DNA of 64,000 nucleotides. It comes from a virus (Duplodnaviria > Caudoviricetes). The position numbers and the translations under genes were made by a program. The notes beneath the pieces are model-generated. The model saw only the letters and a list, made by a program, of their open reading frames with translations, was not told where the DNA came from and did not search any database. The stretch is taken from IMG/VR virus record IMGVR_UViG_3300021400_001327, positions 43,315-107,314 of that record. One strand, 5' to 3'. Every line of letters starts with the position of its first letter. Positions within the stretch are counted from its first letter, which is position 1. Below, in pieces: positions 23,724 through 61,593 of the stretch.

Positions 23724-23725
23724 CC

Positions 23726-25769: not shown

Positions 25770-25788
25770 TATGAAGGGAGTGGAGTAA

Positions 25789-26361: not shown

Positions 26362-26397
26362 CGGAACCACAATTGAATATGGATCGTTACGAAGTAT

Positions 26398-26427
26398 GAG
26401 GACTGTCTGGAACGGCAGTCCTCTTTA
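26398..26427 (+). terminator. Hairpin terminator
   Basis: GAGGACTGTC-loop-GGCAGTCCTC-TTT. Confidence 0.55.
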
Positions 26428-34042: not shown

Positions 34043-35018
34043 GTGCATAAAAATTAGTGGTGATTGCTTTGGGCAGAAAGAAATTAGAGACGCCGGAAAA
34101 ATATTGCGAGAATTGTGGGAAGAAGTTGGAGAGAAGACCTTTAAAGAATGGATACTTAGAGCCATTATTTCACTTCAACAAGAGAAAATACTGTTCAATA
34201 CAGTGTTGCAGTGCTATGCAATCGAGGGAAAAGCTCCTGTGCCCACCAAAGACAGCAAAGACGAGCAGACAGAGGGCGAGAAAGATTGTAGAGCAGGGAA
34301 CGTGTGTGATGTGCGGGGCGCAAACACGGACAGAAGTGCACCATATAGATCACAATCCTATGAACAATACGCCAGAAAATTTGATGAGATTGTGTTCCAA
34401 GTGTCATCACGCCCAGCACAAAAACGACCGACAGAAACCTTTATGTGTTGTTTGCGGGGAGCCGCAGAAGGGGCACCATTTATGCTCAAAACACTGGCAA
34501 GCATGGAGAAAGAGCTTAAAAAGAGGATGGGATACAGAATACACATTGATGATAAAACAATGTTTGATAGATGCGGGGCTGTGAGCGTCTGGGATGCCCG
34601 TGGGAATGGCGACGGAGAGACTTCTCCTACCATCACAGGCGACCACAACAACAGGATCACCGACTACACCGCCGTCATTGTGGAATCGAAACCGAGCACC
34701 CACTACTTCTCTATGCAGCGCTTCGATGAATTCAAGGAGAGCGATGCGGCGTCCACCCTCAAACAGCGGGACTACAAAGACGTGACAGATATCGTGGTCG
34801 AGGAACGAGAACCAATACAGGAACGCAAGTACATCGTCCGGCGGCTGACGCCCACGGAAAGCCTGAGTCTTAATGGTTTGCCGAAATGGTGGTGCGATGA
34901 TGTGAAAGGCCGTTCGGATACAGCGGTATATAAGCTGTCCGGAAACGCAATAGCGATTCCGTGTGCTGTAGATGTGTTGGAAAAAATCGAACGGGCTTAC
35001 AGGAGAGATTTGAGATGA
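33648..35018 (+). CDS. C5 methyltransferase C-terminal/beta-type chain in an alternative frame (start uncertain)
   Basis: SLSQILEVNVPEKYYL; RRLTPTE..LNGLP and YKLSGNAI (motifs IX and X). Confidence 0.7.
   Translation: MPQTTGIQGLQSGKTLAAPLAPTMEQTSKPSSKRSVRSQEPTFMYLSLKSTKEGGQKPEPSWEMVSRLPGVSTTPSVGAFPSVERESSLSQILEVNVPEKYYLTARASLGILRRAWKRGKNLPEVLNNALVECIKISGDCFGQKEIRDAGKILRELWEEVGEKTFKEWILRAIISLQQEKILFNTVLQCYAIEGKAPVPTKDSKDEQTEGEKDCRAGNVCDVRGANTDRSAPYRSQSYEQYARKFDEIVFQVSSRPAQKRPTETFMCCLRGAAEGAPFMLKTLASMEKELKKRMGYRIHIDDKTMFDRCGAVSVWDARGNGDGETSPTITGDHNNRITDYTAVIVESKPSTHYFSMQRFDEFKESDAASTLKQRDYKDVTDIVVEEREPIQERKYIVRRLTPTESLSLNGLPKWWCDDVKGRSDTAVYKLSGNAIAIPCAVDVLEKIERAYRRDLR
34057..34584 (+). CDS. 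HNH endonuclease overprinted within the methyltransferase ORF
   Basis: CENC, KYCSIQC, CVMC..EVHHIDHNPMNN.PENLMRLCSKCH. Confidence 0.85.
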   Translation: MVIALGRKKLETPEKYCENCGKKLERRPLKNGYLEPLFHFNKRKYCSIQCCSAMQSREKLLCPPKTAKTSRQRARKIVEQGTCVMCGAQTRTEVHHIDHNPMNNTPENLMRLCSKCHHAQHKNDRQKPLCVVCGEPQKGHHLCSKHWQAWRKSLKRGWDTEYTLMIKQCLIDAGL

Positions 35019-38537: not shown

Positions 38538-38768
38538 ATGGCTGATTATCACGTTGGTGCTGGCGAAATAACTGGAGAAATCTATGCTGGCGTGTTGTCG
38601 AAAGACGGCAAATCATGGAGAAACCGTTCGATTGTAACTGATGCGGCAATCTGTGCTGTACGGGATCATCTCATCAATCAAATGAATCAAAGCAATCAAG
38701 ATTGGTTTGGTTATGAGTGGTCACGAAAAGACGGCAAGAAGGTCGTATTGAGCATTGCAGTCAAATAA
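38538..38768 (+). CDS. Cassette protein (copy 1 of MADYHVG...)
   Basis: Near-identical to 57764-57994. Confidence 0.8.
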   Translation: MADYHVGAGEITGEIYAGVLSKDGKSWRNRSIVTDAAICAVRDHLINQMNQSNQDWFGYEWSRKDGKKVVLSIAVK

Positions 38769-39159
38769 TTTAAATCGGAGTTTATAGCATGAAAGCAATT
38801 ATAAAATTTACCGCCTGTCTTGAATGTGATATTGATGACAAACTTCGAGACAAGATAGTTTCGAAAGATGAACAGGTCAAACAGCTAAAAAGCCTGTTAA
38901 CGGAAGAATGCGATTGCGAGCAAGTTGAAATAAGCGAGTATCACGTAGAACTCAAATAGGAGTTTAAGCAATGAAGCGAACACCACAAAATTGCACGGTT
39001 GCTGATAGAGTTTATTCCCGCGATGGACATGATAGGTACGTTGGCGATAAATGTGCTGGTGTACGGATTGCTGTTGGTTGGGATGGCGATGAGCCGATTG
39101 ATACTTGTAAAAAATGCAAGTATTTCTATATGTTTGATGAGGATGAGGAAACTTAAATT

Positions 39160-39726
39160 ATGGATTTAGGAGCCTACGCACAGATTGAAAATATTAGCAA
39201 AATCATGACAGACAACGGAATCGCTGTTCCAAGACTGCGCGGACTCAGGCTGATGAGTCAGGAAAAAGCAATTTCTACAGACGAAATTTCAGAGTCTGCC
39301 AATCAATTGGGCCTACAAGAATGTGAAGCTCTCTGCGAGTCAGACTTCCGACTAAACGCACACATTTTCGAATGTTCAAATAGAACCCGCCGGATCAGGC
39401 GAAAATATCTGAAGTATGACGATGATCAATTCACGCCTGTCGGAGTTAGATGGGATCACATCCATGGCAAAAAGCGCAAGAAGTTCAAGTACGTTATCAA
39501 AGCCGCTTATCAGCGTACGCGTGAACAGCTTGAATTATTCAATCGCTATTGCGGCAGGCCTGATGTTCTCTACATCCACGCAAGAATCGGTGGCGGAAAC
39601 TGGCCGTATTACTGTAACGAGGTAAAGAATCAGCCGTGGTTCATCTGCAAAATCGACGATGCCTTTGATTCCACCTACTGCGACATTTACGCCGCGATCA
39701 AACCGCCGGAGGAGAGCCATGGCTGA
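39160..39726 (+). CDS. Hypothetical protein
   Basis: 188-aa ORF, YIHARIGG, DSTYCDIYA. Confidence 0.7.
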   Translation: MDLGAYAQIENISKIMTDNGIAVPRLRGLRLMSQEKAISTDEISESANQLGLQECEALCESDFRLNAHIFECSNRTRRIRRKYLKYDDDQFTPVGVRWDHIHGKKRKKFKYVIKAAYQRTREQLELFNRYCGRPDVLYIHARIGGGNWPYYCNEVKNQPWFICKIDDAFDSTYCDIYAAIKPPEESHG

Positions 39727-44126: not shown

Positions 44127-44165
44127 GCCGCCTTTGTCTCTGTTATTGGATCTAACCAATTATTA

Positions 44166-44195
44166 TGTATCCCCGATACTGTATCACCCTGTATC
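44166..44195 (+). promoter_or_regulatory. Three TGTATC boxes upstream of the replication operon
   Basis: TGTATC at 44166, 44180, 44190; shares TGTATCACCC and TGTATCATC with the 6485-6532 site. Confidence 0.55.
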
Positions 44196-44211
44196 ATCGA
44201 AAGGAGAACGC

Positions 44212-44973
44212 ATGGAAAACAAAGAGGATATCATGTCGATGAACCTGTATCAACGTCTGGCGAAAGTCAGAGATATCGCTGACGTCGTGCAAAAGAACAA
44301 GTCCGGCTATGGCTACAAGTACACGTCGGAAGACGAGATTCTGGCCAAGGTCAAAGCTGGCATGACGAAGTATCGTGTATCTATCTATCCAAGAGTGGAC
44401 ACGGAATGCTTCAATAGCCAGCCGCGCAACTACGAAAAAATGAAGTACGACAAGGCTGCTGGCAAGAACGTGACCACTACCGAAACAGAATGGCTGGTGG
44501 ACGGGACGGTCGTTTATTCCGTTATCAACGATGACGATCCTAACGACCGCTTTGAAGTGACGTGGCCTATCTGCGGTTCGCAGTCAGACAAAGCACAGGC
44601 GTTTGGCTCAGCGCTGACTTATGCCAATCGTTACTTCTACCTGAAGTTCTTCAATATTGCCACATCCGAGGACGACCCCGACGAGTGGAAGCGAAAGAAG
44701 ATGGAAGCGGCTGACGCGGAAGACGAGGCCGCAGCCAAGGTGGTTGTGCAGAAAATCGACGAGCTCTGCCGTGGTGGAATCACCGAAGAGAACAAGCAAG
44801 ACATCATCAAGCTGGTCAAGAAGTACGCCAGGGATGGCGGGAAACCGTCAGGTAATTACCTGCTGATCAAGAAGCTGGATGACGCTAATGCCCTGTACAC
44901 GGAACTGCGGCAGTTCTTCGATGGAACGGGAACAAAAACCAAGAAGACCGAAAAGAAAGAGGAGGCCAAGTAA
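44212..44973 (+). CDS. erf: ERF-family ssDNA annealing protein
   Basis: KNKSGYGYKY, AQAFGSALTYANRY, EDDPD. Confidence 0.85.
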   Translation: MENKEDIMSMNLYQRLAKVRDIADVVQKNKSGYGYKYTSEDEILAKVKAGMTKYRVSIYPRVDTECFNSQPRNYEKMKYDKAAGKNVTTTETEWLVDGTVVYSVINDDDPNDRFEVTWPICGSQSDKAQAFGSALTYANRYFYLKFFNIATSEDDPDEWKRKKMEAADAEDEAAAKVVVQKIDELCRGGITEENKQDIIKLVKKYARDGGKPSGNYLLIKKLDDANALYTELRQFFDGTGTKTKKTEKKEEAK

Positions 44974-45470: not shown

Positions 45471-46226
45471 ATGAGCTCACTGATTTACGACGACTGGACG
45501 TGGTCCTACAGCCGACTCAGCCTGTTCAATCAGTGCCCGTATGCGTTCGCGCTGAAATACCTGTATGGGGAAACGTCACAGTCAAACCAATATGCAGAGT
45601 TCGGCTCTTATATCCATAGTATACACGAGCAGTTTTACAATAAGGAATTGAAAGAGTCTGAGCTTGTCCCCTATTACATCGAACACTTCAGCGAAGTGAA
45701 CAGCCGTATGAGCGGCGAAGCGAGAAGTAAATACTTCCTTGATGGTCTCAACTACTTTGAGGGCGGGATACGGGTTGTCCCGTCCTCAATCATTGGTGTC
45801 GAAAAGGTTATCAACTTCAAAGTTGCCAACTACAGGTTTGTTGGAATCATCGACCTGTTGTATCGGAATGAGGACGGTTCACTGACCATCCTGGATCATA
45901 AGTCCCATAACCTAAAACCAAGGTCTGGCCGCGTCAAGCCGACTGCAACGGACAGGGAGTTGGATGACTATCTAAAACAACTCTATTTGTACGCTCACGG
46001 CGTTCATCAGCTGGGGTTAGGAAATGTCAGCACCCTTACGTTCAATTGCTTCAGGGGTTCTCAGATTATCGAAAACAGATATTCTAAAGCCAAGGAAGAC
46101 GAGGCCGTTGAATGGGCGGTCAACACCATCGGGAAGATAGAGGATGCGACCGTCTTCGATCCGCGTCCAGACTGGTTCTACTGCCGCAATCTATGTGATT
46201 GCCGGGGCATCTGCGAGTACAAATAA
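45471..46226 (+). CDS. PD-(D/E)xK (Cas4/RecB-like) exonuclease
   Basis: WSYS..QCP, GIIDL, ILDHKS, QLYLY, C-terminal Cys cluster. Confidence 0.85.
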   Translation: MSSLIYDDWTWSYSRLSLFNQCPYAFALKYLYGETSQSNQYAEFGSYIHSIHEQFYNKELKESELVPYYIEHFSEVNSRMSGEARSKYFLDGLNYFEGGIRVVPSSIIGVEKVINFKVANYRFVGIIDLLYRNEDGSLTILDHKSHNLKPRSGRVKPTATDRELDDYLKQLYLYAHGVHQLGLGNVSTLTFNCFRGSQIIENRYSKAKEDEAVEWAVNTIGKIEDATVFDPRPDWFYCRNLCDCRGICEYK

Positions 46227-48219: not shown

Positions 48220-49392
48220 ATGCCAAACTATGTGATGTACCACTGTCATAGCGATTACAGCCTGCTCGACAGTTGTACAAAGTTCAGTGATTACATCGAA
48301 CTGGCGAAACGCGATGGCATGACGGCGATTGGGTCCAGCGAACACGGACTTCCGAGAGGCAACATCAGCAAGATGATCGCCTGCCAGGAAGCTGGGCTGA
48401 AATTCCTCTATGGTGTTGAGGTGTATCTGACCAGGACGTTGAGTGGTGAAAAGGTCAGAGACAATTACCACACCGTGCTGATTGCCAAGAACCACGAGGG
48501 CATGAAGGAAATCAACCTCGCGGTCAAGCTGGCCTCGCGTGACGACCACTTCTACTACCAGCCGAGGATGACATTTGATGAACTGATTCGGCTTTCAAAA
48601 AACGTGATTGTTATATCAGCCTGTGTCGCTTCGCCGCTAAGCAAGCTGCATGTCAGTGATGCGGACTACCAAAGACTGCTGAACCGCTACGATTATCTGG
48701 AGATACAGCACCATGACCACCCAATGCAGATAGCGTACAACCAACATCTGTACCAACTGTCGCTGGAGACAGGCAAGCCGCTCATCGCCGGGACGGACAC
48801 ACACTCCTCTACACCGTATAAGGCCGAGTGCCGCGACCTGCTGATGCTGGCCAAGGGCAAGTCGTTTCCCGATGAGGAGACCTTCGACCTGACCTATAAG
48901 ACCTATGATGAATTAGTGGCCGCATATGAGAAACAGGGCGCCCTCCCCCGTGACGTGTATCTTCAGGCGATTGAGAACACGAACGTGATGGCGGCGAGCG
49001 TGGAAGAGTTTACCATCGACCGCAGTAACAAGTATCCGATATCGTATGGCTCTGCCGAAGAGGACGCAAGGCGGTACAAAGAACTGACATGGCAGATGTT
49101 CGAGGACAAGCTGAAGAAAGGTGTAATACCGAGGAGCCAGGAAGATGCGTTCAGGAAGGCGATAGAAGAGGAGCTCGCCACATTTGAAAAGCTGGGCATG
49201 TGCGGCTTTATGCTGTCTGAAAGCGAGCTCATTCAGTGGTGCCATGCTAACGGCATTCCAACCGGCCCAGCTCGTGGTTCTGTCGGCGGTTCGCGTGTGG
49301 CGTATGTTACGGATATCATCGACATGAACCCTGAGGACTATGGCACGATATTCAGCAGGTTTTGTAACGAAAATCGTATAGAAATTGGCGAT
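48220..49392 (+). CDS. dnaE: DNA polymerase III alpha, exon 1
   Basis: PHP HCHSDYSLLD, GPARGSVGGS, FSRF..EIGD. Confidence 0.92.
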
Positions 49393-50235
49393 CAACCATA
49401 CGGTCGCCCTTTGCAGTAATGCATCGAAAACAAGCTGGTGAACCAACATACGTTGGGTGTGCGGCGTTTGCCGTGCTAACGGTGAAAGCTAAACCGCAAG
49501 GCATGCTAATACCGTGGTAAGCCTTTAGGAAAGGAGGTAACCATATGATTGACTATAGTTTGCTGTATAGCGGAGAGGAATTGAAAGAAATCAATGGGTT
49601 TGAACATTACTATGTTTCAAATTATGGCCGTGTGTTTTCTGACGGAGAATACAGAAAGAGTGGCCGTCGTGACTTTCATGAGCTGAAGGGCAAGTACGGG
49701 AAGAATCCAGCGAAGTACGGTAATGTCATGCTCTCGAAGGATGGAAAGTATTACACGTTTATGATTCACCGACTTGTAGCTCTACACTTTGTGCCCGGAT
49801 ATTTCGATGGCGCTGTCACCAATCATATCGACGGCAACAACAGAAACAATCGAGCCGATAATCTTGAATGGATAACTCAAAAAGAAAATATCCACAAGTC
49901 CTATGTCACATCAGGAGTCAATCAGCTTCGTCATTATGATGAGTGGGCTTTGTTTGACCCTGAGGGCAACGAACTCGGAGTATTCAAAGGTATGACGGCC
50001 ATACACAGATTTATCGAGAAGAATCATCTTCCGACGTATGGATCTTCGTTAGAAAAGTATAAGGTCAGTCGTGGTTACCGTGTTGAAAAAGTTCCTAAGG
50101 AAACTGTAACGACTATCCAAATCGGAGTAGCGTGACGGTGAAATTCCGTCGTGCGAAGTGCCAGCCTCCGCAATAATGCGGATGAAGATATAGTCTACTC
50201 CCCTAATAAATATCGGGAAACCGAGGGTATAAAGG
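49393..50235 (+). ncRNA. Group I intron (843 nt) in dnaE carrying an HNH gene
   Basis: P1 GGCGAU/GUCGCC with U.G pair; ACGACUA and AAGAUAUAGUC; terminal G; splicing yields EIGD-IDTD. Confidence 0.9.
49545..50135 (+). CDS. NUMOD4-HNH homing endonuclease
   Basis: YYVSNYGRV, HRLVA, NHIDGNNRNN..NLEW. Confidence 0.9.
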   Translation: MIDYSLLYSGEELKEINGFEHYYVSNYGRVFSDGEYRKSGRRDFHELKGKYGKNPAKYGNVMLSKDGKYYTFMIHRLVALHFVPGYFDGAVTNHIDGNNRNNRADNLEWITQKENIHKSYVTSGVNQLRHYDEWALFDPEGNELGVFKGMTAIHRFIEKNHLPTYGSSLEKYKVSRGYRVEKVPKETVTTIQIGVA

Positions 50236-52233
50236 ATAGATACTGATCTTATTGACACCGATAGGCCAAGAGTGTTCCAACATATCATCCAGAAGTTCGG
50301 CGAACGCAAGACCGCCCGTGTTTCGGCTTATGGCACGGTCGCCGATAAAGGCGCGATTGACGATATCTGCCGTGGCCTGAAGACGCGCTGGGTGACAGAT
50401 AACAGAAAAGACCTAAACCCCAAGACATTCAAAGATGAGATGATTCCAGAGTGCCCGTTCACACTAAAAGCGGCGGACAAAATCAAGGACGAGTATATGA
50501 GCAATCCGACAGCCGCCAGACAGAAATATCCCGATGTCTTCTACTACTTCGATGGCACAGTCAACACCATCGTCAGCCAGTCCATTCACGCAGCAGGCAT
50601 CGTTATTTCTCCAGTAACATTGGACGATAACTACGGCACGTTCTACAACTCTGGTGAGCACTGCCTCCTGCTCGATATGGAAGAGGCTCACGACGTAGGT
50701 ATGTGCAAGTACGACATGCTGATTCTAACAAACGTTAAAATCATTGCGGACACATATAAGGCGCTGGGCAAACCGTTCCCCAAAACGCACGAAATTGACT
50801 TCAATGATCAGGCTGTATGGAAAGATATGAGGCGAAGCCCCTACGGCATCTTTCAAATGGAGAGCTCGCTGGGATACAACTCCCTGCGCAAGATGAAACC
50901 GACCAGCGTCAAAGAGATGGCGTTGTTGACTGCATCAATTCGTCCGTCCGGCGCGTCGTACAGGGATGACGTATTCGCCCGTAAGGTACACGCCAACCCC
51001 ACCAAGGAGATGGACGAACTCTTCAAAGACAACTTTGGCTTCTGCGTCTATCAGGAAGACATCCTGCGTGCTCTGATCGAGCTTTGCGGCTTCAGCGGCA
51101 GTCAAGCAGACACAGTGCGGCGGGATATCGCAAAGAAGAATCCAGAGAAGGTCGCCAAGGATATTGTGCTGATCAAGCAGGGGTATATCGAACGCTCCAA
51201 TAAACCAAGGGAAGAGGCTGAACGCGATGTGGCAGACCTGCTTCAGGTCATTCAGGACGCCAGTGGATACTCTTTTAATAGCTCGCATGCAGTCGCATAT
51301 TCCATTGTGGGCTTCATGTGCGCCTATTGCCGCCACTACCACCCGCTTGAGTTCTGCACGGCCTACCTCAACGGCGCCAAGTCGCAGGAAGACATCTACC
51401 ACGGAACCGTCCTCGCCCAGCTTTACGGCATCAACATCCAGCCGCCGACCTTCGGCCACTCCGGCGACGAGTACACATTCGACAGAGCGACCAACACCAT
51501 TTATCAGGGGCTCGACTCGGTCAAAGATATGGAGTCTGGCGTTGGCCAACGCATGGCCGAGCTTGAGAAGACCGCGCCAACAGACTCTGCGGTCGACCTG
51601 TTCCGTTATCTCAAGAGTAACGGTATCGGCAACAAACAGCTTGAGATACTCATAGACATCGGGTTTTTTGCCAATTTCGGCAATGTCAGGAAGTTGCAGA
51701 AAATCCTTGAAAACGCTATCGCTCTCAAGTGGGGAGATATGACATGGCTCGCGCACGAAAAACTCCCGAGGTTTAGCTTTGAAGCCGGTGCGCTCTCCGC
51801 CTATGCAGAGCGCAGGACAGAGAAGAACTGGAAGGTCAAAGACGGCGCTGGCCTGTTACGGTATATGGGGCGCATCGTCGACGATCAGAACGTACAGGAC
51901 GAACCGTTGTCCGAGAAGTTTAGCAAGTGGATGAACTACCTTGGTTATATCCCGGCGATGGGCGCGGACTTCAGGGCAAAGATGTATGTCTCAACCGACC
52001 CGAGAGAACTCAGGTCCAAGAAGACGGGTAAGGTATGGGCGCACTGCATATCGGCAATTTCGCTGAGAACTGCCGAAATGCATGAATGGCTGATACCGAG
52101 CGGCTTCTACATCAACAAGCTTAAGAAGGGAGACGTGATCCAGGTCGTCGGCGGGCGCGAAGGATTCAGCGTTGGTGATTATAACGGTATGCCGACATAT
52201 CGCCTGTATAACTACAAGGTAACCAATGTTTAA
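50236..52233 (+). CDS. dnaE: DNA polymerase III alpha, exon 2
   Basis: IDTD, HAAG, KYDML, GIFQME, YQE, YSFNSSHAVAY. Confidence 0.92.
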   Translation: MDTDLIDTDRPRVFQHIIQKFGERKTARVSAYGTVADKGAIDDICRGLKTRWVTDNRKDLNPKTFKDEMIPECPFTLKAADKIKDEYMSNPTAARQKYPDVFYYFDGTVNTIVSQSIHAAGIVISPVTLDDNYGTFYNSGEHCLLLDMEEAHDVGMCKYDMLILTNVKIIADTYKALGKPFPKTHEIDFNDQAVWKDMRRSPYGIFQMESSLGYNSLRKMKPTSVKEMALLTASIRPSGASYRDDVFARKVHANPTKEMDELFKDNFGFCVYQEDILRALIELCGFSGSQADTVRRDIAKKNPEKVAKDIVLIKQGYIERSNKPREEAERDVADLLQVIQDASGYSFNSSHAVAYSIVGFMCAYCRHYHPLEFCTAYLNGAKSQEDIYHGTVLAQLYGINIQPPTFGHSGDEYTFDRATNTIYQGLDSVKDMESGVGQRMAELEKTAPTDSAVDLFRYLKSNGIGNKQLEILIDIGFFANFGNVRKLQKILENAIALKWGDMTWLAHEKLPRFSFEAGALSAYAERRTEKNWKVKDGAGLLRYMGRIVDDQNVQDEPLSEKFSKWMNYLGYIPAMGADFRAKMYVSTDPRELRSKKTGKVWAHCISAISLRTAEMHEWLIPSGFYINKLKKGDVIQVVGGREGFSVGDYNGMPTYRLYNYKVTNV

Positions 52234-53803: not shown

Positions 53804-54215
53804 GAAGGTAGACCATCCGTCATATTACAATCGCGGTAAGGTCGAGGTGATCGACTTTATTGAAGACTGGGACCTTGACTTCTCTATGGGGTGCTTCGTG
53901 AAGTATGTGTGTCGTGCTGGACACAAATCGGACGCGGTTGAGGACCTCGAGAAAGCCAAGTGGTATATCAAGCGATACACAGAACATCCGAGCGAGCCGA
54001 AATTCGATGGTACTTATGATTGGCGGGAGTACGCAGAGTCCCAGGGGCTGTGCCGTGAGTTGTGCATTGCGATGCAATTGGCGCACGACATGTATTTTAC
54101 GCCGGACGAGCTTGTTCTGAACGATATTTTGTTTCTGATCGATACAGCGATCAAAGATATTAAAGCAAAAACATTCACGCCAAGCGTGACGTTTGAATCG
54201 GGGTGTAAGGAATAA
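53796..54215 (+). CDS. DUF3310 protein
   Basis: VDHPSYY...EVIDFI, KYVCRAGHK, EDLEKAKWY. Confidence 0.8.
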   Translation: MSEKVDHPSYYNRGKVEVIDFIEDWDLDFSMGCFVKYVCRAGHKSDAVEDLEKAKWYIKRYTEHPSEPKFDGTYDWREYAESQGLCRELCIAMQLAHDMYFTPDELVLNDILFLIDTAIKDIKAKTFTPSVTFESGCKE

Positions 54216-54433
54216 TGGGCTATAAACTTTACGGACTTCATGGCTGCGGCATGTGTGCCGCGCTTGAACAGCAGATGCGGGAAAAGGGTGTCCCGTACGA
54301 AAAAATCGAGGACAAGGAAAAGATCATGGCGATGGATCTGGATAGTATTCCGGCGCTTGATACGGGCGACAAGGTAATGTATTTTCCAGAGGCCATCATG
54401 TTTCTTCGGAATACACAGTTTATCTACACATAA
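54215..54433 (+). CDS. nrdH: NrdH/glutaredoxin-like redoxin
   Basis: CGMC and SIP cis-Pro, next to RNR. Confidence 0.7.
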   Translation: MGYKLYGLHGCGMCAALEQQMREKGVPYEKIEDKEKIMAMDLDSIPALDTGDKVMYFPEAIMFLRNTQFIYT

Positions 54434-54461
54434 ATAACATTACACGAAAGGGTGATCTCCT

Positions 54462-56369
54462 ATGACGGATGCTGAAAAGCGGCTCCTGCTTGATCAATAT
54501 TTACCATTCATGAATGACCTTGACTTCATTGACCGCTATTGCAACGCTGAAAACGCGGCCTCGGGCAGTGAGGTCGATCCAAACTCCAACGTCCGCAATA
54601 AGAACGTCGCTACGCTGGAGAGCGAGATTCATAAAAAGAAGAACATCTTTGCCAATCGGCTTCGCATGTTTAACACGATTAAAGAAATCTACGGCGAAGA
54701 CCTCGCCTATCAATATTTGTATGACCTTGAGCACCACATCATATACCGTAACGACGAGACAGGTTTGGTCGGAAAACCATATTGCGCTGCCATCTCCCTT
54801 TACCCTCTGCTGGTCAGCGGTCTGAAGGGTGTGGGCGGGCAGTCCTCTGCACCTAAGAATCTGGAGTCCTACTGCGGCAACTACATCAACCTTGTGTTCG
54901 CGGTCTCCGCGCTGATCCTCGGCGCTTGTGCGACCCCCGAGTTCCTGACCATCTTCGATTACTTTGCGCGTAAGGATATGGGCGAAGACTACTGGCAGTA
55001 TCCTGACCGTGTCGTCTTTAACTCTCCTATCCGCAAACGCACCATTGATCAGTATATCTGTGATAAGTTCCAGCAGGTGGTGTATTCCCTGAATCAGCCC
55101 GCAGGCAGCAGAACATACCAGAGTCCGTTTATCAACTTCTCCTATTTCGATAAAGAATACTTCGACGCTTTGTTCAATGGATATTACTTCCCCGATGGCA
55201 CACAGCCAAAGTGGGAGAGCCTGCAGTGGCTACAAAAACGCTTCATGAAATGGTTTAATGAGGAGAGAAGAAAGGTAATCCTCACGTTCCCAGTGGAGAC
55301 GTTCTCAATCCTTAATAATGGGGAAAGCTTTCCTGATGAAGACTCTTTTAATTGGATTGCTCAGATGTATAGCGAGGGGCATAGCTTCTTCACGTATACG
55401 TCTGATACAGTAGATAGTTTGAGTTCTTGTTGTAGATTGCGAAACGGTATTGATCTCGAAGAAAACGTATTCAGCTATTCTCTTGGCGCTGGCTCCATCC
55501 AAACCGGCAGCCTCTGCGTTATTACTCTGAATATCAGCCGCACTGTACAGGACGCGAAGCGTGAGGGTCGCGACATCTCTGACATGATTACCGAGCGCGT
55601 ATCCCGTATCCACAAGTATCTGATTGCCTTCCGCAAGATCCTTCAGGATATGATTGACGCACATATGATCCCGATTTATGAGGAGCCGATGTTCATCGAT
55701 CCCAACAAGTGCTATCTGACTGTCGGCATCAACGGCCTGAATGAGGGTGCTGAATTCCTTGGCATTGAGCCTTCCAACAATGAAGACTACCAGCAGTATG
55801 TGGCCTCTATTCTGAAACCGATTTACGAACTCGATAAGGCGGATCGCGTCGCCGGGAAATACAAGTTTAACTGCGAGTGCATCCCAGGTGAGTCAGTCGG
55901 TGTGCGCTTCCGCAAGTGGGATGCCCGTGACGGCTATTGGGTTCCCGACCGTATCGCGTACAACAGCTACATCTACCGCTCTGACGACCCAAACATCCAG
56001 CCCACCGAGAAGTTCGTCATGCATGGCGAGAACTATACCCAGTGGCTCGACGGCGGTTCCGCTCTGCATCTGAACCTCAATGAGCACCTGACCAAAGAGC
56101 AGTACAAACGGCTGTTGAAGCTCGCTGCCAAGAACAAGACCGGACTGTTCACCATGAATATCCCGAACACCGTCTGCAAATCCTGCGGTCATATCTCCAA
56201 GCATTACCTCCAGAAGTGCCCTGAGTGCGGCAGCGAGGATGTCGACTACGCGGTTCGCCCCATTGGCTACCTAACACTTGTGTCACGCTGGTCGCTTGAG
56301 CGGCAGGAGGAGTTCAAGAAGCGGTACTTCGCAGATCCGCAGAAAGTTGATGAGGTAAAGAATGATTAA
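54462..56369 (+). CDS. nrdD: Anaerobic ribonucleotide reductase class III (no ATP cone)
   Basis: PYC, SSCCRL, CKSC..CPEC, RPIGYL glycyl-radical loop. Confidence 0.93.
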   Translation: MTDAEKRLLLDQYLPFMNDLDFIDRYCNAENAASGSEVDPNSNVRNKNVATLESEIHKKKNIFANRLRMFNTIKEIYGEDLAYQYLYDLEHHIIYRNDETGLVGKPYCAAISLYPLLVSGLKGVGGQSSAPKNLESYCGNYINLVFAVSALILGACATPEFLTIFDYFARKDMGEDYWQYPDRVVFNSPIRKRTIDQYICDKFQQVVYSLNQPAGSRTYQSPFINFSYFDKEYFDALFNGYYFPDGTQPKWESLQWLQKRFMKWFNEERRKVILTFPVETFSILNNGESFPDEDSFNWIAQMYSEGHSFFTYTSDTVDSLSSCCRLRNGIDLEENVFSYSLGAGSIQTGSLCVITLNISRTVQDAKREGRDISDMITERVSRIHKYLIAFRKILQDMIDAHMIPIYEEPMFIDPNKCYLTVGINGLNEGAEFLGIEPSNNEDYQQYVASILKPIYELDKADRVAGKYKFNCECIPGESVGVRFRKWDARDGYWVPDRIAYNSYIYRSDDPNIQPTEKFVMHGENYTQWLDGGSALHLNLNEHLTKEQYKRLLKLAAKNKTGLFTMNIPNTVCKSCGHISKHYLQKCPECGSEDVDYAVRPIGYLTLVSRWSLERQEEFKKRYFADPQKVDEVKND

Positions 56370-56850
56370 ATACGTCTCTCACGCCATTACCTTCGCCGAA
56401 GTCCCTGACGAGATCAGTCTGACCCTGGCCATCTCTAACTGCGGTGGCCACTGCCAAGGCTGTCACTCGCCGGAGCTCCGGCAGGATATTGGGCGTGACC
56501 TCGAAACCGACCTTCCAGACCTGATCAAAAAGTATCGTAACCAAATCACCTGTGTTTGCTTCCTCGGCCAAGGTAACGATATCGATGCACTCAATGAGTG
56601 TATCGCCTACTGCCACTATCACGGCCTGAACTCATGTCTGTATACAGGGCGAGACTCTTTCGACGTATTCCAGACGCCCTACTTGACATATCTCAAGGTC
56701 GGGCCATACGACGAAAAGCTCGGCGGCATCGATAAAGTGACGACTAATCAGAAGATGTATCAATTCTATTGGGCACCCGATATCAGCGCGTCGATGATGG
56801 TTACGCGATACGATATCACACACAAATTCTGGCGCAAACCTGTGGTGTGA
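56362..56850 (+). CDS. nrdG: RNR activating enzyme
   Basis: CGGHCQGC radical-SAM motif, EVPDEISL. Confidence 0.9.
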   Translation: MIKYVSHAITFAEVPDEISLTLAISNCGGHCQGCHSPELRQDIGRDLETDLPDLIKKYRNQITCVCFLGQGNDIDALNECIAYCHYHGLNSCLYTGRDSFDVFQTPYLTYLKVGPYDEKLGGIDKVTTNQKMYQFYWAPDISASMMVTRYDITHKFWRKPVV

Positions 56851-56889
56851 CATATGGTTTAAGAAAATCAGAGCCGAGGGAGGAAGAGT

Positions 56890-57282
56890 ATGAAGGTCGC
56901 TGAAATGTCGAGAGAGGATTTTGAAAAAGTTCCAGAGCGAAAACACTTTGATGAACAGATTGGTTTGTTTAACTCTCTTGTAATTCTTCCAATGGACTAT
57001 TTGCACGACAGCGGTTATAAGTGTATGGATTTTATTGCCGTTGATAATAATGATGAACCGATATGTAGGCTGTCGGGGTATTCAGATGTTTTGCATCTTG
57101 ATGGGATTGGCGGGTGTGGAGAGCATAACGGGAGAATTGCCACTAATAGGCCGGTTGAAGGGTGGTCGATTGATTGTTTACCATGCGGTCTTTTGAGAGT
57201 TTTTTGTAAAGGATGGATAGCAGCAGGTGCTGCTGTTAGTAGCTTTGAGGTTTTCTTTCATGATAGGAACGAAAAAAGATAA
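56890..57282 (+). CDS. Hypothetical protein
   Basis: GGGAGG RBS, HDSGY. Confidence 0.7.
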   Translation: MKVAEMSREDFEKVPERKHFDEQIGLFNSLVILPMDYLHDSGYKCMDFIAVDNNDEPICRLSGYSDVLHLDGIGGCGEHNGRIATNRPVEGWSIDCLPCGLLRVFCKGWIAAGAAVSSFEVFFHDRNEKR

Positions 57283-57301
57283 GTGTGTTAATCAGGAGTT
57301 T

Positions 57302-57452
57302 AAGCGGTGGCGAAATATGTAGACGCTTACACTATGCCGGTTGATATGACATATGTCTTATCTTCTAAGAAGAGCTACGGCACGTTACCACCTGTGGTCC
57401 CAAATCGGCCGTTGGAATGCTCTTTATGTGAGGTGCAAATCCTCACCTGCTT
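57302..57452 (+). ncRNA. tRNA-like RNA with large insert
   Basis: AAGCGG/CTGCTT acceptor stem, Leu-type D-arm, GTGAGG-TGCAAAT-CCTCAC T-arm. Confidence 0.65.
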
Positions 57453-57469
57453 AACGAAATAACATTTTT

Positions 57470-57559
57470 ATGCGGTGGTGCAAGCATAGCACTCCGCCGG
57501 GGTGTAGGCGTAGTAGCCGATAGCCGGGGGCAATGTCAGGTGAAATGCCTGTCCCGCAT
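57470..57559 (+). ncRNA. tRNA-like RNA
   Basis: ATGCGG/CCGCAT, GTGC/GCAC D-arm, GTCAGG-TGAAATG-CCTGTC. Confidence 0.55.
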
Positions 57560-57763
57560 TAAATAGGAGCTTTGTAGAATGGAAGGAATCTGTGACAACT
57601 GCCGGAATGCAGAACAATGCGACAGTGCTAAAACAATGATTGGCATCAGAATTGAATGCAGTATGTTTCTACCAAAGGACAGAGTACCTTATGAGGATGA
57701 GATAACGGGCTTTGTTTCAACAGTAAAGCAGTGTAACAAGAAGGCTTAAATAGGAGCTTTGAA

Positions 57764-57994
57764 ATGGCTGATTATCATGTTGGCACTGGTGAAATAACTG
57801 GAGAAATCTATGCTGGCGTATTAGCGAAAGACTGCAAATCATGGCGCAGTCGTTCGATTGTGACAGATGCGGCAATCTGTGCTGTACGGGATCATCTCAT
57901 TAATCAAATGGAGCAAAGCAAGCAAGATTGGTTTGGTTATGAGTGGTCACGGAAAGACGGCAAGAAGGTCGTATTGAGCGTTGCCGTCAAATGA
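57764..57994 (+). CDS. Cassette protein (copy 2 of MADYHVG...)
   Basis: Near-identical to 38538-38768. Confidence 0.8.
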   Translation: MADYHVGTGEITGEIYAGVLAKDCKSWRSRSIVTDAAICAVRDHLINQMEQSKQDWFGYEWSRKDGKKVVLSVAVK

Positions 57995-58869
57995 CTCAAA
58001 TAACACTTGTACTGCGGTGGCTACGAAGGATGGGGATTGGATAGCGTAATTGATGGGTATCCGCAGATGGTTAAAATTAGGAGCATAAACCATGAACGAC
58101 ATTGATTCTATGCCGCCGAAATGTCATGATTGTCCTTATTGGGAGATGTGCGAAGAACCGTATATATGCCCAACGCAAGATGAAAAGAAGGAACTTGAAT
58201 AACACTTTGGTTAGAGCCTGACACGCCTCTGATGACGGTGATTCAAGCGGACCACGTTAGGACATTTGGCAGAGAATGCCGTCACGTTCTCTGCGACTTC
58301 AATAGGAGTTTTGTATGATTGGACTAAAGAGTTCCATGCCTGATAAATGCCTTTGTTGTCCATGTCTCCATACCATATTGGTAGACGGTATGGCAGTTCG
58401 TTTCTGTATGGCTAAACACAGGGACATCGTTATTATATCAGAAAACGAAGTAAAGAATTCCTCAGAGTGGATGAACTTTCCGAAACCGGATTGGTGTCCC
58501 TGGGTTGAAGTAAATTAAACAGGAGAATAAAATGACAGGGCAAGAATTGATAGAATACATTATAAACAATCATCTGGAAAATTATATCGTTGTAGTGTCT
58601 CAAGAAGTTGGTGAAAGCAGTTATCCAGCAAGAGAAATCGAAATAGACAATACTCTAAAGACATTTGAGATAACATAAATTAAATAGGAGTTTTGATTAT
58701 GACAGTAAAAGAATTGATTGAAAAACTGAAAAAGGAGAACCCTGATGCGTTGGTTTATACAATAGATACTTCAGACGATGATATCGCGCTGATTGTAACC
58801 AAAGTTAGCAGGAATATTCTTGAAGGGAAAGACGAGACAGTTACAATACATTAAACAGGAGAACAAAGT

Positions 58870-59214
58870 ATGAAAGACTATAGTTTTGCCCAACAGACAG
58901 ATGAACTCAAGAGGCTAATCGCAGAGCATCCAGATTATCAAATCGTAGTGCTTGCAGGCGAGGAGGCATACATCGGCGATTATGCGTGGACGTGCTGTAG
59001 TGATGTCAGGTTTGCTATTGGTGAAATCTTAGACACGGACTATTACGATTATGACGATGCCATTATTACCGATAGAGAGAGACTGGAAGAAATAATAGAA
59101 GATCGTCTTTATGATGAGTTTGAGAGCGATGAACTGGACAAGGCCGTGAAAGACAAGATGGCGGAGCTTGAACCGTATTGGAAGAATGTTATTTTTATAT
59201 ACGCAACAAACTAA
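58870..59214 (+). CDS. Acidic hypothetical cassette protein
   Basis: 114-aa ORF between two sites. Confidence 0.7.
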   Translation: MKDYSFAQQTDELKRLIAEHPDYQIVVLAGEEAYIGDYAWTCCSDVRFAIGEILDTDYYDYDDAIITDRERLEEIIEDRLYDEFESDELDKAVKDKMAELEPYWKNVIFIYATN

Positions 59215-59225
59215 AATAGGAGCTT

Positions 59226-59435
59226 AAGCGGTGGCGGAACAGGTAGACGCAGAGATCAGACTTGACTGGTAGTAATCGGCGCGTAGGCCCATGTGGCGGA
59301 TGTGGATGCGACACCACTGTTAAAAAAGCATAACGGTTGCGCTGGTGCCAAACGAGGAGCGTACAGGCTGAAAGCTCCCGCCAATCAGGGGTTGCTTCAA
59401 ATCCAGTCATGTGAGGTGCAAATCCTCACCCGCTT
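59226..59435 (+). ncRNA. tRNA-like RNA with large insert
   Basis: AAGCGG/CCGCTT, GGCGGAACAGGTAGACGC, T-arm identical to the 57302 unit. Confidence 0.65.
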
Positions 59436-60061
59436 TAACGTAAATAGGAGGATAAACTATGCAGGGAAATGTAACCAAAGAAATATGCTTGACACTTGAC
59501 CAATGGGAAAAAGTGAAAAATGCGCTCAATTTTTACGAATGCGCTGCCGTTGAGTTTTTATCAATTACTGACAGGGAGAATTTCAGCGAAGAATACATCA
59601 TACCTATATATAATCAACTGCCTGACGAGGTTTTCTAAGCGTCTTAAATTAGGAGTTTTTATATCATGGCTATGGATTACATTCCAGATGACTGTACTTG
59701 TTGTATGTATTTGGACAAATGTGGCGTATGTCAAAAATATAACAAGAAAGCGGTTAATCCAGATGATTTATCAGACCCGTTCGCGGAAATAGAGAAACCA
59801 GATTGGTGCAATATTGGAGAGCAAGAGTGTAATTAAATAGGAGTTTAAATGATTAAGTGGATAAAACGTATGCTTGAATTGCACAGAAAACGAAAGACCT
59901 GTTATTTCAGGACGAGACCATACTTTCATCCGCCTTGCAAGTATCCAAATAATGAAGAATGTAAATTGTGTAGGTATAAAAAGTAAATGTTCTTTTAGTC
60001 AAACACGATTTACCAAATCTTGATTATATAAATCGACATTATATATTAAGGAGGTGAAGCT

Positions 60062-60622
60062 ATGTACAAACCTAAACCAAAGGCGATTTACTACAGCAAA
60101 GACAAAGTCCGCTATGATTATCCAAGCAAAAAGTACGTTTGGAAAGAAGGCAAGAGTGGCACATTGTGGTCGATGGGAACATATCCTACAAAGATTAGGC
60201 CATGCGATCTGTCTGATGACTACATCAAAGTATATCTGTATGGCGACTACAAATACCTGAGAGCGTCTGGCATCAAAGACATGTACTACAAGCCAAACAT
60301 GTGGATTAACCATTTTCTAAAGGATGATGTCCTATACATCTCCTACGGTAAGCCGCTAATAATTGCGCCCGACAGGTATGGTTATGAGCGATGTGACAAC
60401 TATGACGTCGCCCTGTTTGGCAACGACATCATGCTCTTTATAGCAGCTGCCAAACGTTACTCCAACTACGACGTCAGTAAGTTTGAACAAGCGATTAAAG
60501 ACAAGCTCATCCACTTCAGGACCAAATTTCCAGAAGATGCGGCGCACATTTCCAATGGTTGGGATTACAGGCCGGAAGACTACGATAATAAAATAAAGGA
60601 ATTGGCGAGACATGAATGGTAA
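60062..60622 (+). CDS. Hypothetical protein
   Basis: AAGGAGGTGA RBS. Confidence 0.75.
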   Translation: MYKPKPKAIYYSKDKVRYDYPSKKYVWKEGKSGTLWSMGTYPTKIRPCDLSDDYIKVYLYGDYKYLRASGIKDMYYKPNMWINHFLKDDVLYISYGKPLIIAPDRYGYERCDNYDVALFGNDIMLFIAAAKRYSNYDVSKFEQAIKDKLIHFRTKFPEDAAHISNGWDYRPEDYDNKIKELARHEW

Positions 60623-61097
60623 TAAAGAGAAACAGATCGCACGACGCCAGAAAATACTCGAGATTATCACGAGCGAGCGCGTCGACAGTGTTCCTGAGCT
60701 CCGCGAAAAGCTCGATGCAGAGGGCTACCACTGCGACCGCGCCACCGTCTACAGAGATATCCAGGCGATGGGACTCATCACCGCCGTTCAAAGAGATGGC
60801 ACGGTTGGCATAGCGACCCCAGAGAGAGTCGCCTATGAGAGTGTGTCAGAGCGCTTGTCTAAGCTGACGGTGGAAGCTGTATACGATGTTGTCAGTTATA
60901 AGGACATGGTAAAGATACGCTGTGTGCGCGGGTGCGCGGAGGCTGTTGCCGCTTCTGTTGAGGGGCTGAGGCTCCAAGAGGTGTTTTGCTGCATGTCGTC
61001 GTTTGATTATGTGATAGTTATATGCCTGCACGAAGAGGGCGCCGCAAAGGTGGCTGATATATTAAGAAGGGCGGTGTTTGGCGATGATTATGTTTGA
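60612..61097 (+). CDS. argR: ArgR/AhrC-like transcriptional regulator
   Basis: RRQKILEII...EL...L...G...RATVYRDI..MGL wHTH plus ArgR-like C-terminal domain. Confidence 0.75.
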   Translation: MNGNKEKQIARRQKILEIITSERVDSVPELREKLDAEGYHCDRATVYRDIQAMGLITAVQRDGTVGIATPERVAYESVSERLSKLTVEAVYDVVSYKDMVKIRCVRGCAEAVAASVEGLRLQEVFCCMSSFDYVIVICLHEEGAAKVADILRRAVFGDDYV

Positions 61098-61593
61098 GAA
61101 GGTTCCATTTGATATTTTCGTAGATACTGTGAATAATCTTGATTTAGGCATTATGTTTCCAAGCGATCCCGGTTTTTTGTATAATACACTGCATGACCTA
61201 CAGATGCCCACGCGGGCAACCAAAGGCTCGGCTGGTTACGACATTCATACTCCCTTCGCGTTCCCGCTTAACCCCGGAAAAAGCGTTATTATCCCAACTG
61301 GGCTCAGATGCCTGATGCCGCATGACGTGGTCCTGATGCTCTACCCACGCTCCGGCCTTGGCTTTAAGTATCGGTTAAGGCTGAACAACACCGTCGGCGT
61401 GGTAGACAGCGATTTTGCGAACTCTGACAGTAAAGGCCACATACTGCTGAAACTCAGCAACGAGGGCGATAAGCGTATAGAGTTCAAAGCCAACGACCGC
61501 GTGTGTCAGGGCATATTCACTCATTACCTGCTGACCGATGACGACGCCGCAGACGGTGAGCGTACCGGCGGCTTCGGCAGCACAGACAAATAA
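61090..61593 (+). CDS. dut: Trimeric dUTPase
   Basis: SAGYD, RSGLG, GVVDSD, QGIF, RTGGFGST. Confidence 0.93.
   Translation: MFEKVPFDIFVDTVNNLDLGIMFPSDPGFLYNTLHDLQMPTRATKGSAGYDIHTPFAFPLNPGKSVIIPTGLRCLMPHDVVLMLYPRSGLGFKYRLRLNNTVGVVDSDFANSDSKGHILLKLSNEGDKRIEFKANDRVCQGIFTHYLLTDDDAADGERTGGFGSTDK

Follow-up and report, generated by a model that had tools for sequence, protein, structure and literature searches.

A stop/Shine-Dalgarno junction as a candidate exchange point for small cassettes in a 107-kb phage genome

Comparison of near-identical strains and of unrelated phages shows that small cassettes are gained, lost, reordered and replaced at an array-specific junction in a 107-kb phage genome with direct terminal repeats. 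The region concerned, array 2, takes up 2.7 kb of this genome and strings 15 tiny units in a row; it lies within the 64,000-nt stretch of DNA that was analyzed (hereafter, the window), and a second such array, array 1, is found at 37.5-39.2 kb. We posit that array 2, like array 1, is a hyperplastic region composed of small AT-rich co-oriented expression cassettes and GC-richer structured RNA units, in which the end of one unit and the start of the next would form one portable 16-nt stop/Shine-Dalgarno (SD) junction; with a single portable junction, the units would be translatable in any order. We lean, with some reserve, toward modular shuffling driven by homology at this junction, akin to that of promoter-early stem-loop (PeSL) cassettes. 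Exchange would occur by homology-guided recombination between short conserved junctions during co-infection and, occasionally, at other short conserved sequences, such as the ends of tRNA-like RNA stems.

Positions 57288-59990 hold 15 full junctions and one half junction, which delimit 10 small ORFs (36-114 aa) and five GC-richer units without a conserved ORF, in agreement with the first-pass annotation of about 16 sites, 10 small ORFs and five non-coding units. Set in a 5+6+5 frame (16 nt), the junctions follow the consensus TTAAA-TAGGAG-TTTAA or a non-SD variant, TTAAA-TAACAC-TTT, non-SD meaning without the SD ribosome-binding motif. The non-SD spacers of array 2 are TAACAT at 57460 and TAACAC at 58001 and 58200; as had been proposed, all three (in the junctions starting at 57455, 57996 and 58195) precede non-coding units in this array, and the site reported as perfect at 59833 indeed reads TTAAATAGGAGTTTAA at 59833-59848. 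The features are, in order:

57288-57303 (+), junction S1, TTAAT-CAGGAG-TTTAA, SD type, 5' of RNA unit A
57302-57454 (+), unit A, predicted tRNA-Leu-shaped RNA with an insert of ~100 nt, without anticodon arm; arms shared with unit B
57455-57470 (+), junction S2, CGAAA-TAACAT-TTTTA, non-SD
57471-57560 (+), non-coding unit N2, GC 0.61, closing stem ATGCGG/CCGCAT
57559-57574 (+), junction S3, TTAAA-TAGGAG-CTTTG; breakpoint versus L147
57579-57749 (+), cassette ORF, 56 aa, Cys-rich, no family found
57746-57761 (+), junction S4, TTAAA-TAGGAG-CTTTG
57764-57994 (+), cassette ORF, 76 aa, DUF7446 (Pfam PF24233, 1.4e-13)
57996-58011 (+), junction S5, TCAAA-TAACAC-TTGTA, non-SD
58012-58066 (+), non-coding unit N3, closing stem CTGCGG/CCGCAG; conserved in L120 only
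58073-58088 (+), junction S6, AAAAT-TAGGAG-CATAA
58092-58202 (+), cassette ORF, 36 aa, Cys-rich; 4/4 differences to L120 synonymous
58195-58210 (+), junction S7, TTGAA-TAACAC-TTTGG, non-SD; breakpoint versus L147
58211-58297 (+), non-coding unit N4, GC 0.53, strong 3' hairpin, folding z about -2
58298-58313 (+), junction S8, TTCAA-TAGGAG-TTTTG
58315-58518 (+), cassette ORF, 67 aa, Cys-rich; 9% divergence to L120
58515-58530 (+), junction S9, TTAAA-CAGGAG-AATAA
58532-58678 (+), cassette ORF, 48 aa; missing in L119 and L147
58680-58695 (+), junction S10, TTAAA-TAGGAG-TTTTG; right breakpoint of the L119 difference
58699-58854 (+), cassette ORF, 51 aa; copies in L142 and G004
58851-58866 (+), junction S11, TTAAA-CAGGAG-AACAA
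58870-59214 (+), cassette ORF, 114 aa, widespread small phage protein; 295 homologue clusters
59212-59227 (+), junction S12, TAAAA-TAGGAG-CTTAA, SD type, 5' of RNA unit B
59227-59437 (+), unit B, predicted tRNA-Leu-shaped RNA with an insert of ~150 nt; arms shared with unit A
59440-59455 (+), junction S13, GTAAA-TAGGAG-GATAA; breakpoint versus L147
59459-59638 (+), cassette ORF, 59 aa; missing in L120 and L147
59645-59660 (+), junction S14, TAAAT-TAGGAG-TTTTT
59666-59836 (+), cassette ORF, 56 aa, Cys-rich; missing in L120 and L147
59833-59848 (+), junction S15, perfect TTAAA-TAGGAG-TTTAA; breakpoint versus L120 and L147
59849-59986 (+), cassette ORF, 45 aa, basic, Cys-rich; copy in L120
59983-59988 (+), half junction GTAAAT; array end, adjoining the constant backbone GTTCTTTTAG

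Four strains whose flanks are 98-99% identical each have a cassette set of their own; over the 10-12 kb compared, they differ in structure only inside the array, and 12 of the 14 breakpoints lie in junctions. S2 is the left breakpoint of a 1.2-kb difference versus L119, a relative that, like L147, is missing ORF 57579-57749. S9 is joined straight onto an S11-type junction in L147, where N4 moves together with the next ORF at 92% identity; L120 carries additional cassettes inserted at S12 and has ORF 59849-59986, at 97% identity, at the front of its array. The left part of S1 is constant backbone in L120 and L147, and the right part varies with the cassette that follows. Array-1 cassettes are found inside array 2 of these same two relatives, and ORF 57764-57994 is a paralogue of array-1 ORF 38539-38769. 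Divergence to L120 ranges from 0 to 9% per cassette (chi-square p 2e-8): ORF 57764-57994, at 8%, is flanked by cassettes at 0% and 4.4%. Third codon positions hold 12/19 differences in this ORF and 14/19 in ORF 58315-58518, and this excess, together with the 295 homologue clusters of ORF 58870-59214, identifies the cassette ORFs, at the level of sequence, as real genes. The cassette behavior suggested by the first-pass annotation was looked for among the strains and seen at junctions; its counter-case, an array without rearrangement, does not hold: cassettes are present or absent, change order, pass from array 1 to array 2 and are replaced by other alleles, in every case at junctions. A metagenome scan added one further strain only.

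The remaining two breakpoints fall at the conserved GCGGTGG / CACCCGC stem ends of RNA unit B; both ends of this unit in L120 are breakpoints within the acceptor stem, with the outer pair compensated. Some junctions are half sites (e.g., AAATAG followed by unrelated sequence), and overlapping double junctions are present too. The stem breakpoints and half sites fit homology-guided exchange better than a site-specific one. Across seven shared cassettes, the left arm tends to follow the upstream unit and the right arm plus leader the downstream unit, a pattern that fits homologous and site-specific exchange and thus does not discriminate between them; a fixed site-specific cut is still compatible with the data because crossover points cannot be placed inside a junction. 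Further considerations count against the homology model: the shared homology spans only ~11-18 nt, short for efficient homologous recombination, and the recurrent TAACAC spacer and 5-nt inverted arms are accounted for only by common descent.

The cassettes are not confined to close relatives. For at least 12 cassettes from arrays 1 and 2, copies with 80-96% nt identity are present in viral genomes that are otherwise unrelated; these genomes range in GC from 0.39 to 0.58, their remaining proteins show either 22-66% aa identity or no similarity at all, and nearly all HSPs of the copies begin and stop at junctions. Nucleotide copies of ORF 57579-57749 (85%, in L140) and ORF 58699-58854 (84-89%, in L142 and the 46-kb genome G004) run from junction to junction; ORF 58092-58202 has an 83% copy in G003, and ORF 58870-59214 has an 89% copy in the 38-kb genome G007, where it adjoins an array-1 cassette. 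The 95% identical copy of N2 in L038 has a TAACAC junction as its left border and stops at the 3' stem of the unit itself. Arrays are lower in GC than the backbone, both in the window genome and in G007. No array follows the left flanking gene in more distant relatives (49-67% aa), none of 50,697 GenBank phage records matched the array in BLASTN, and protein-level searches with two cassettes returned only three weak matches, to uncultured records. Pfam and PHROGs assign the cassette proteins no function beyond DUF7446 and a few PHROGs of unknown function.

The exact AAATAGGAG occurs in 12 plus-strand copies in the whole 107-kb genome, only within the two arrays; AAWWAGGAG is present in 18 copies versus 1.8 expected, and AAAT lies directly 5' of AGGAG at 11 of 17 array ORF starts (16 cassette ORFs plus a GTG frame inside unit A) versus 0 of 74 elsewhere (Fisher 3e-10). 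Each unit is closed by TTAAATA(G/A), with stop codons in two reading frames, and most protein units open with GGAG-TTT-N(2-7)-ATG. The junctions are 15-25 nt long and contain only the stop/SD motif, the upstream half being the best-conserved portion; S7 overlaps the stop of the preceding ORF (58092-58202), and S14 retains its left arm even with the upstream stop 8-10 nt away. Such a layout could serve translation only, as an optimal or co-regulated stop and strong SD in A/U-rich flanks with no role at the DNA level, possibly recognized by a translational repressor of the phage or cut at GGAG by a RegB-like nuclease; mosaicism would then arise by random illegitimate recombination, with selection retaining the joins at gene borders. 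We consider this reading unlikely, if worthy of serious attention. SD-to-ATG spacing is normal (5-10 nt) at all ORF junctions, ORF-ORF gaps hold almost only the site, so that viable breakpoints must fall there, and distant homologues of ORF 58870-59214 in other phages sit at ordinary junctions; a different conserved RBS context, CGGAAC(C)AGAA-AGGAG-A, marks another gene module of this genome, which is suggestive of module-specific signals at the RNA level. Yet a 16-18-nt junction, including its SD-less TAACAC allele, is identical among unrelated phages with GC of 0.39-0.58, and the junction also fronts RNA units, where an RBS is not needed. Illegitimate joins, moreover, would not restore an intact consensus on both sides every time, and the two breakpoints at another short conserved sequence point to homology.

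The non-SD junction TTAAATAACACTTTA(A) recurs in at least eight places in other viral contigs, where ~0.1-0.6 would be expected; because this form is conserved across phages, the need for an RBS alone cannot explain the arms. Only to this extent is the DNA-level function that the first-pass annotation read into the retained arms supported; a dedicated site-specific mechanism is not evident. Its link between non-SD spacers and non-coding units turns out to be no general rule, because the TAACAC junction is also found 5' of ORFs with their own SD (in array 1 and in other phages) and RNA units A and B are both preceded by SD-type junctions. The TAACAC junction may be an allele from which the SD has been removed, and would travel as the leader of units for which the junction does not initiate translation, be they RNAs or genes that bring a leader of their own.

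If the motif were a signal for transcription or RNA processing, its presence in front of both RNA units and ORFs would make sense, as would the high conservation of its upstream half. The junction could be (i) the promoter of a phage-specific polymerase, with a start at GGAG or ACAC, or (ii) a cleavage site that frees each unit from a polycistronic RNA; we find this idea very improbable. A scan of positions 54000-61500, which include the array, returned 14 promoter-like sites versus 13.3 expected and four terminator-like sites versus 6.0: sigma-70-like promoters are not above chance, there is no excess of either element inside the array, and the junction holds neither. The SD on which the ORFs evidently rely would be weakened if transcripts began within GGAG or 3' of it. 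A search for a T7-type RNA polymerase gave no match, a weak absence in that the search control matched nowhere either.

The array also invites comparison with integrons (IntI, attI, attC): in both, small promoterless cassettes are co-oriented, each with one recombination-associated site bearing inverted arms, and close relatives differ in which cassettes they have and in what order, the breakpoints lying at the sites. In a phage "mini-integron", a tyrosine recombinase encoded by the phage or of the host Xer type would use the 5-6-5 junction as its core site to excise and insert protein-coding and RNA cassettes alike. We deem this improbable, and give equally little credence to the broader proposal that the junction is the core site of a cassette-mobilizing activity, whether exerted by a tyrosine recombinase of phage or host or by an enzyme outside all known families. 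The two 5-nt arms and the 6-nt spacer, conserved even without an SD, would suit such a site, as would the common orientation of all junctions, one per promoterless cassette, and the travel of cassettes between very different genomes; no longer inverted repeat surrounds the junction, however, and the binding arms of known tyrosine recombinases far exceed 5 nt. The genome does encode two generic Phage_integrase-domain proteins (genome 705-1880, window 15342-16178), and all five other array-bearing genomes tested have a Phage_integrase-domain match, three above the Pfam cut-off, but integrases are common among temperate phages anyway. Neither protein is of the integron type (best TIGR02249 score 43 bits against a cut-off of 265), both lie >20 kb from either array, no IntI or other recombinase adjoining the arrays and no resolvase was found, and no recombinase or other protein is common to five array-bearing genomes. 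Whereas attC is an imperfect inverted repeat of 57-141 nt with R''/L'' and L'/R' boxes, the junction here measures 16 nt, serves also as stop and RBS, and may be imprecise or halved; half junctions, double junctions and RNA-stem breakpoints are unlike precise site-specific exchange. Homology-guided exchange, the reading we prefer, would probably be assisted in this phage by an Erf annealing protein and a PD-(D/E)XK nuclease, encoded at 44.1-46.2 kb; Erf cannot be the general agent, because it is absent from five other array-bearing genomes.

The closest parallel is offered by PeSL cassettes, which are found in T4-type phages within hyperplastic regions (Arbiol et al. 2010, PMC2839356; Comeau et al. 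2014, PMC4122927) and whose exchange has been ascribed to homologous recombination between motif copies (PMC2839356, PMC4122927). There as here, small non-essential ORFs of unknown function lie between copies of a short conserved regulatory motif, which also marks the limits of indels and replacements among close relatives. In PeSL shuffling, exchange between adjacent motifs also gives rise to circular mini-circles. The PeSL motif, however, combines a strong early promoter of the sigma-70 type with a terminator stem-loop, and the junction has neither, being a much shorter 16-nt stop/SD element; in addition, the units of our arrays include putative structured RNAs, and shared cassettes circulate among otherwise unrelated genomes. 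Morons differ as well, in that each has its own promoter and terminator and the array units have neither.

The tRNA-gene regions of T4, T5 and other large phages intersperse tRNAs, small stable RNAs of unknown function and small ORFs. Array 2 resembles them as a variable, presumably co-transcribed region that combines small ORFs with tRNA or tRNA-like RNA genes, including a true tRNA-Ile present as an array cassette in L120, and differs in that one uniform junction links RNA with protein units, that canonical tRNAs are missing from the window genome and that its RNAs are without an anticodon arm. ARAGORN at default settings found no canonical tRNA (RF00005) for A or B, with 0 genes in window and genome, and Rfam gave no match in the array at the gathering score or at E up to 10; ARAGORN calls forced by allowing introns and lowering thresholds were inconsistent and were not accepted as tRNAs. 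Judged by sequence features, A and B belong to a widespread family of anticodon-less tRNA-Leu-shaped phage RNAs, whose 3' motif occurs at >116 viral loci and which comprises 66 distinct units of 90-312 nt with a variable insert. Its members combine a 5' tRNA-Leu-like acceptor/D arm, the D arm equaling that of an ARAGORN-called phage tRNA-Leu, with a 3' T arm that has a UGCAAAU loop; the closing stem shows 38 different pair combinations, and the acceptor and D stems covary (D-stem variants GCG/CGC, CTG/CAG, GTG/CAC and TCG/CGA). A and B carry the family's 5' GGCGGAAUAGGUAGACGC arm, 3' GAGGUGCAAAUCCUC arm and covarying closing stem, and the 5' acceptor/D arm and 3' T arm GAGGTGCAAATCCTC are common to A, B and >100 viral loci; what sets these two apart is their position as cassettes behind SD-type junctions. 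The window copy of A has a mutated D loop that has lost the two conserved G residues.

The non-coding units are richer in GC than the ORFs (0.47-0.61 vs 0.32-0.45; p 0.003). When folded as single sequences, N2, N3, N4 and unit B give weak z-scores (-0.3 to -2.2), which alone do not prove these units to be RNAs; N3 (z -0.6 to -1.6) is the weakest candidate. The RNA units would be co-transcribed passengers, probably excised by tRNA-processing enzymes, and the putative passengers include the two tRNA-Leu-shaped anticodon-less RNAs, the three units of ~60-90 nt and the true tRNA of one relative.

Tiny phage genes without a known function are abundant and their spread is poorly understood; the array offers a clean natural example, in which a pool of 60-400-bp units, RNA and protein genes alike, circulates among unrelated phages, each unit bearing a universal 16-nt adaptor that ends the preceding gene and starts translation of the following one. 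If this adaptor is the point of recombination too, the stop/RBS junction would join PeSL-type motifs as a means of plug-and-play exchange of accessory genes; if a cassette-mobilizing activity were instead at work, the arrays would represent an integron-like platform carried by phages, with mini-genes for proteins and genes for tRNA-shaped RNAs captured and exchanged among unrelated phages. A ready test system exists in the four naturally occurring strain variants, and the adaptor could be a practical design for phage engineering. Should the adaptor model be true, searching metagenomes for sequences between adaptors would yield candidate accessory, host-takeover and anti-defence genes as well as new small RNAs.

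Array 2 (57288-59990) is a real and well-delimited feature. Reading the sequence from 56800 to 60400 and listing its ORFs bore out the counts of the first-pass annotation: 15 junctions of 16 nt and one terminal half junction separate 10 small ORFs (36-114 aa) from one another and from five stretches that lack a conserved ORF; the perfect site (59833) and the three junctions with a TAACAC/TAACAT (non-SD) spacer in place of AGGAG (SD type), at 57455, 57996 and 58195, lie where it had placed them. The non-coding units and flanks are as follows.

56890-57282, 130-aa ORF left of the array, preceded by a reductase activase-like gene
57302-57454, non-coding unit A
57471-57560, non-coding unit N2
58012-58066, non-coding unit N3
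58211-58297, non-coding unit N4
59227-59437, non-coding unit B
60062-60622, 186-aa ORF right of the array

The 107,314-bp record, whose final 64 kb make up the window, has direct terminal repeats, and from about 22 kb of the window onward the + strand carries nearly all larger ORFs. Genes for replication and nucleotide metabolism surround array 2: primase-helicase, a split Pol III alpha, the flavin-dependent thymidylate synthase ThyX, an anaerobic ribonucleotide reductase (identified by translation alone) and a dUTPase (identified by translation and by a homologue, annotated as dUTPase, in a related locus). The first Pol III alpha part (48220-49419) holds PHP and the start of the NTPase domain, the second (50272-52233) the NTPase remainder, finger and HHH; an HNH_3/NUMOD4 homing-endonuclease-like ORF (49545-50135) lies between them. 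A 456-aa ORF (33648-35018) with a C-terminal C5 cytosine methylase domain encloses an HNH ORF (34057-34584) in another frame.

Aligned on the spacer, the junctions give the consensus TTAAA-TAGGAG-TTTAA, well conserved in left arm and spacer and with a T-rich right arm at about 70% of sites; the stop of the upstream ORF usually falls inside the left arm or spacer, and AGGAG stands 5-10 nt from the next ATG. This motif is not the general RBS context of the phage. AAWWAGGAG was observed 18 times against 1.8 expected, and the + strand of the whole genome has 12 exact copies of AAATAGGAG, all of them in the arrays, six in each (array 1 spans 37.5-39.2 kb); the minus strand has one more, 12 nt 5' of ORF 10256-10690. 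Among 91 AGGAG-type ORF starts, AAAT directly precedes AGGAG at 11 of the 17 in arrays (16 cassette ORFs and the GTG frame within unit A) versus 0 of 74 elsewhere (Fisher 3e-10). A different module on the + strand, 20500-30100, has its own RBS context, (A)CGGAAC(C)AGAA-AGGAG-A, before at least 10 genes.

That the units behave as cassettes, as had been proposed, is shown by comparison with three further records with 98-99% identical flanks (L119/L121, L120 and L147): rearrangement was looked for and seen, as gain, loss, reordering and allele replacement, and over the 10-12 kb compared structural differences are confined to the array. L119 lacks 57456-58675 (eight units). In L120, A is preceded by an array-1 ORF (37511), a new non-coding unit and also ORF59849, and B by a 28-aa ORF, a further non-coding unit and a tRNA-Ile; 59438-59988 is missing. 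In L147, A and N2 are retained and are followed by an array-1 ORF (38799, 86%), N4 with ORF58315 (92%), and further on ORF58870, B, a 44-aa ORF that is new, and ORF59849. Of the 14 breakpoints, 12 fall in junctions; two lie at the ends of unit B, in GCGGTGG and CACCCGC, and there the change in the outer stem pair is compensated. From cassette to cassette, divergence between window and L120 switches between values as low as 0% and values of 8-9% (chi-square p 2e-8), which means that individual cassettes have been swapped for other alleles.

Cassettes are also shared with genomes of 38-148 kb and GC 0.39-0.58 that outside the cassettes have few proteins in common with this phage, at 22-66% identity.

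Table. Cassette copies in other viral genomes and contigs (nucleotide identity; with few exceptions, HSPs both begin and end at junctions)
N2: L038, 95%; left bound a junction, right end its own 3' stem
ORF57579: L140, 85%
DUF7446 (57764): L140, 86-88%
ORF58092: G003, 83%
ORF58699: G004 and L142, 84-89%
ORF58870: G007, 89%
ORF37733 (array 1): G007, 91%
ORF37960 (array 1): L098, L140 and L181, 80-96%
ORF38799 (array 1): L098, 86%
188-aa gene just after array 1 (39160-39726): G001, 86% (87% aa)

In the 38-kb G007, one array-2 cassette adjoins one array-1 cassette in a small AT-rich island within a GC-rich backbone. G001 is an otherwise unrelated viral genome (148 kb, GC 0.39), and no family was found for the 188-aa gene. 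IMG/VR contains few such arrays: 15 contigs have the exact 17-mer, and of the 23 with paired sites 150-180 nt apart only a few are true multi-site arrays.

Differences in array ORFs concentrate at third codon positions, with 12/19, 4/4 and 14/19 against L120, 20/35 and 14/21 against the relative L130, and 14/22 between the two DUF7446 paralogues. Public data contain 295 homologue clusters for ORF58870; its remoter homologues in other phages (53-71% aa) have ordinary and different junctions, and the junction therefore belongs to this array pool rather than to the genes. No function is known for any cassette ORF, and many of their products are rich in Cys.

In GC content the five non-coding units exceed the ORFs (0.47-0.61 versus 0.32-0.45; p 0.003). 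A and B have in common a 5' end resembling a tRNA-Leu acceptor/D arm, the D arm of their family matching ARAGORN-called phage tRNA-Leu genes, and a 3' T-arm-like hairpin with the loop UGCAAAU; neither ARAGORN nor Rfam calls them, because a variable insert replaces the anticodon arm. More than 116 viral contigs contain their 20-nt 3' motif, nearly always together with the 5' arm, at a distance of 80-300 nt upstream, and with a covarying closing stem (38 pair combinations among 66 distinct units, with D-stem variants too). In the window and L119, unit A (57307-57462) has two D-loop substitutions, GGAATAGG to GAAATATG, that abolish the GG conserved in the tRNA-like RNA and remove the TAG ending the frame GTG-GCG-GAA-TAG, with the result that a 51-codon ORF opens 8 nt downstream of the SD-type junction; in L120 and L147 the D loop is canonical. 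N3 and N4, conserved in close strains only and with weak folding scores, are for those reasons the least certain RNAs. Other arrays hold further GC-rich units of 75-100 nt that fold into closed multi-hairpin shapes, and L120:2797-2871, directly before B, is a true tRNA-Ile(UAU); canonical tRNAs are absent from the 107-kb genome to which the window belongs.

Among loci fetched for other reasons, the non-SD form TTAAATAACACTTTA(A) stands at at least eight places, with perfect 5-nt arms in four, against about 0.1-0.6 expected, and is a conserved allele rather than random decay. RBS function cannot explain this conservation, and a purely translational or RNA-level reason for keeping the junction is rather unlikely. 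The proposed pairing of non-SD spacers with non-coding units holds locally in array 2 but not as a rule, because elsewhere the non-SD junction precedes ORFs with their own SD (including array 1 at 38203) or a near-consensus promoter as well as RNAs, and the junctions in front of A and B are of SD type. On the reverse strand of L142 (about 5086-5160), a sigma-70 promoter close to consensus (TTGACA, 17 nt, TAGAAT) comes after a TAACAC-type junction at the array end, a hint that this allele can mark where a translated array stops. At L147:4516-4540, two junctions overlap in tandem (TTAAAC-AACAC-TTAAAC-AGGAG), with one arm common to a TAACAC-type spacer, CAACAC, and an SD-type spacer.

A dedicated site-specific system is unsupported: no resolvase and no protein common to array-bearing genomes was found, the two tyrosine recombinases are generic and each more than 20 kb from the arrays, and some joints are imprecise, among them half junctions, overlapping double junctions and joints within RNA stems. 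No promoters or terminators stand out. For the DNA-level function first argued for the arms, an allele conserved beyond RBS function speaks in favour and the want of such a system against; that function is no more than plausible. Since shared cassettes do not resolve the exchange point within a junction, a fixed cut there by an unknown enzyme keeps a slim chance. Simplest would be a portable stop/RBS adaptor that doubles as a short homology patch for recombination during co-infection, the principle shown for the PeSL (promoter/stem-loop) cassettes of T4-type phages, where exchange is attributed to homologous recombination at the motif (PMC2839356, PMC4122927). Two genes form a two-component recombination module:

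44134-44970, Erf-family annealing protein
45471-46226, PD-(D/E)XK nuclease

The pair could promote cassette exchange in this phage; Erf is not common to the other array-bearing genomes. Array 2 is best classed as a variant of junction-mediated modular shuffling, notable for its very short stop/SD adaptor, its mixture of RNA and protein units and one cassette pool across unrelated phages.
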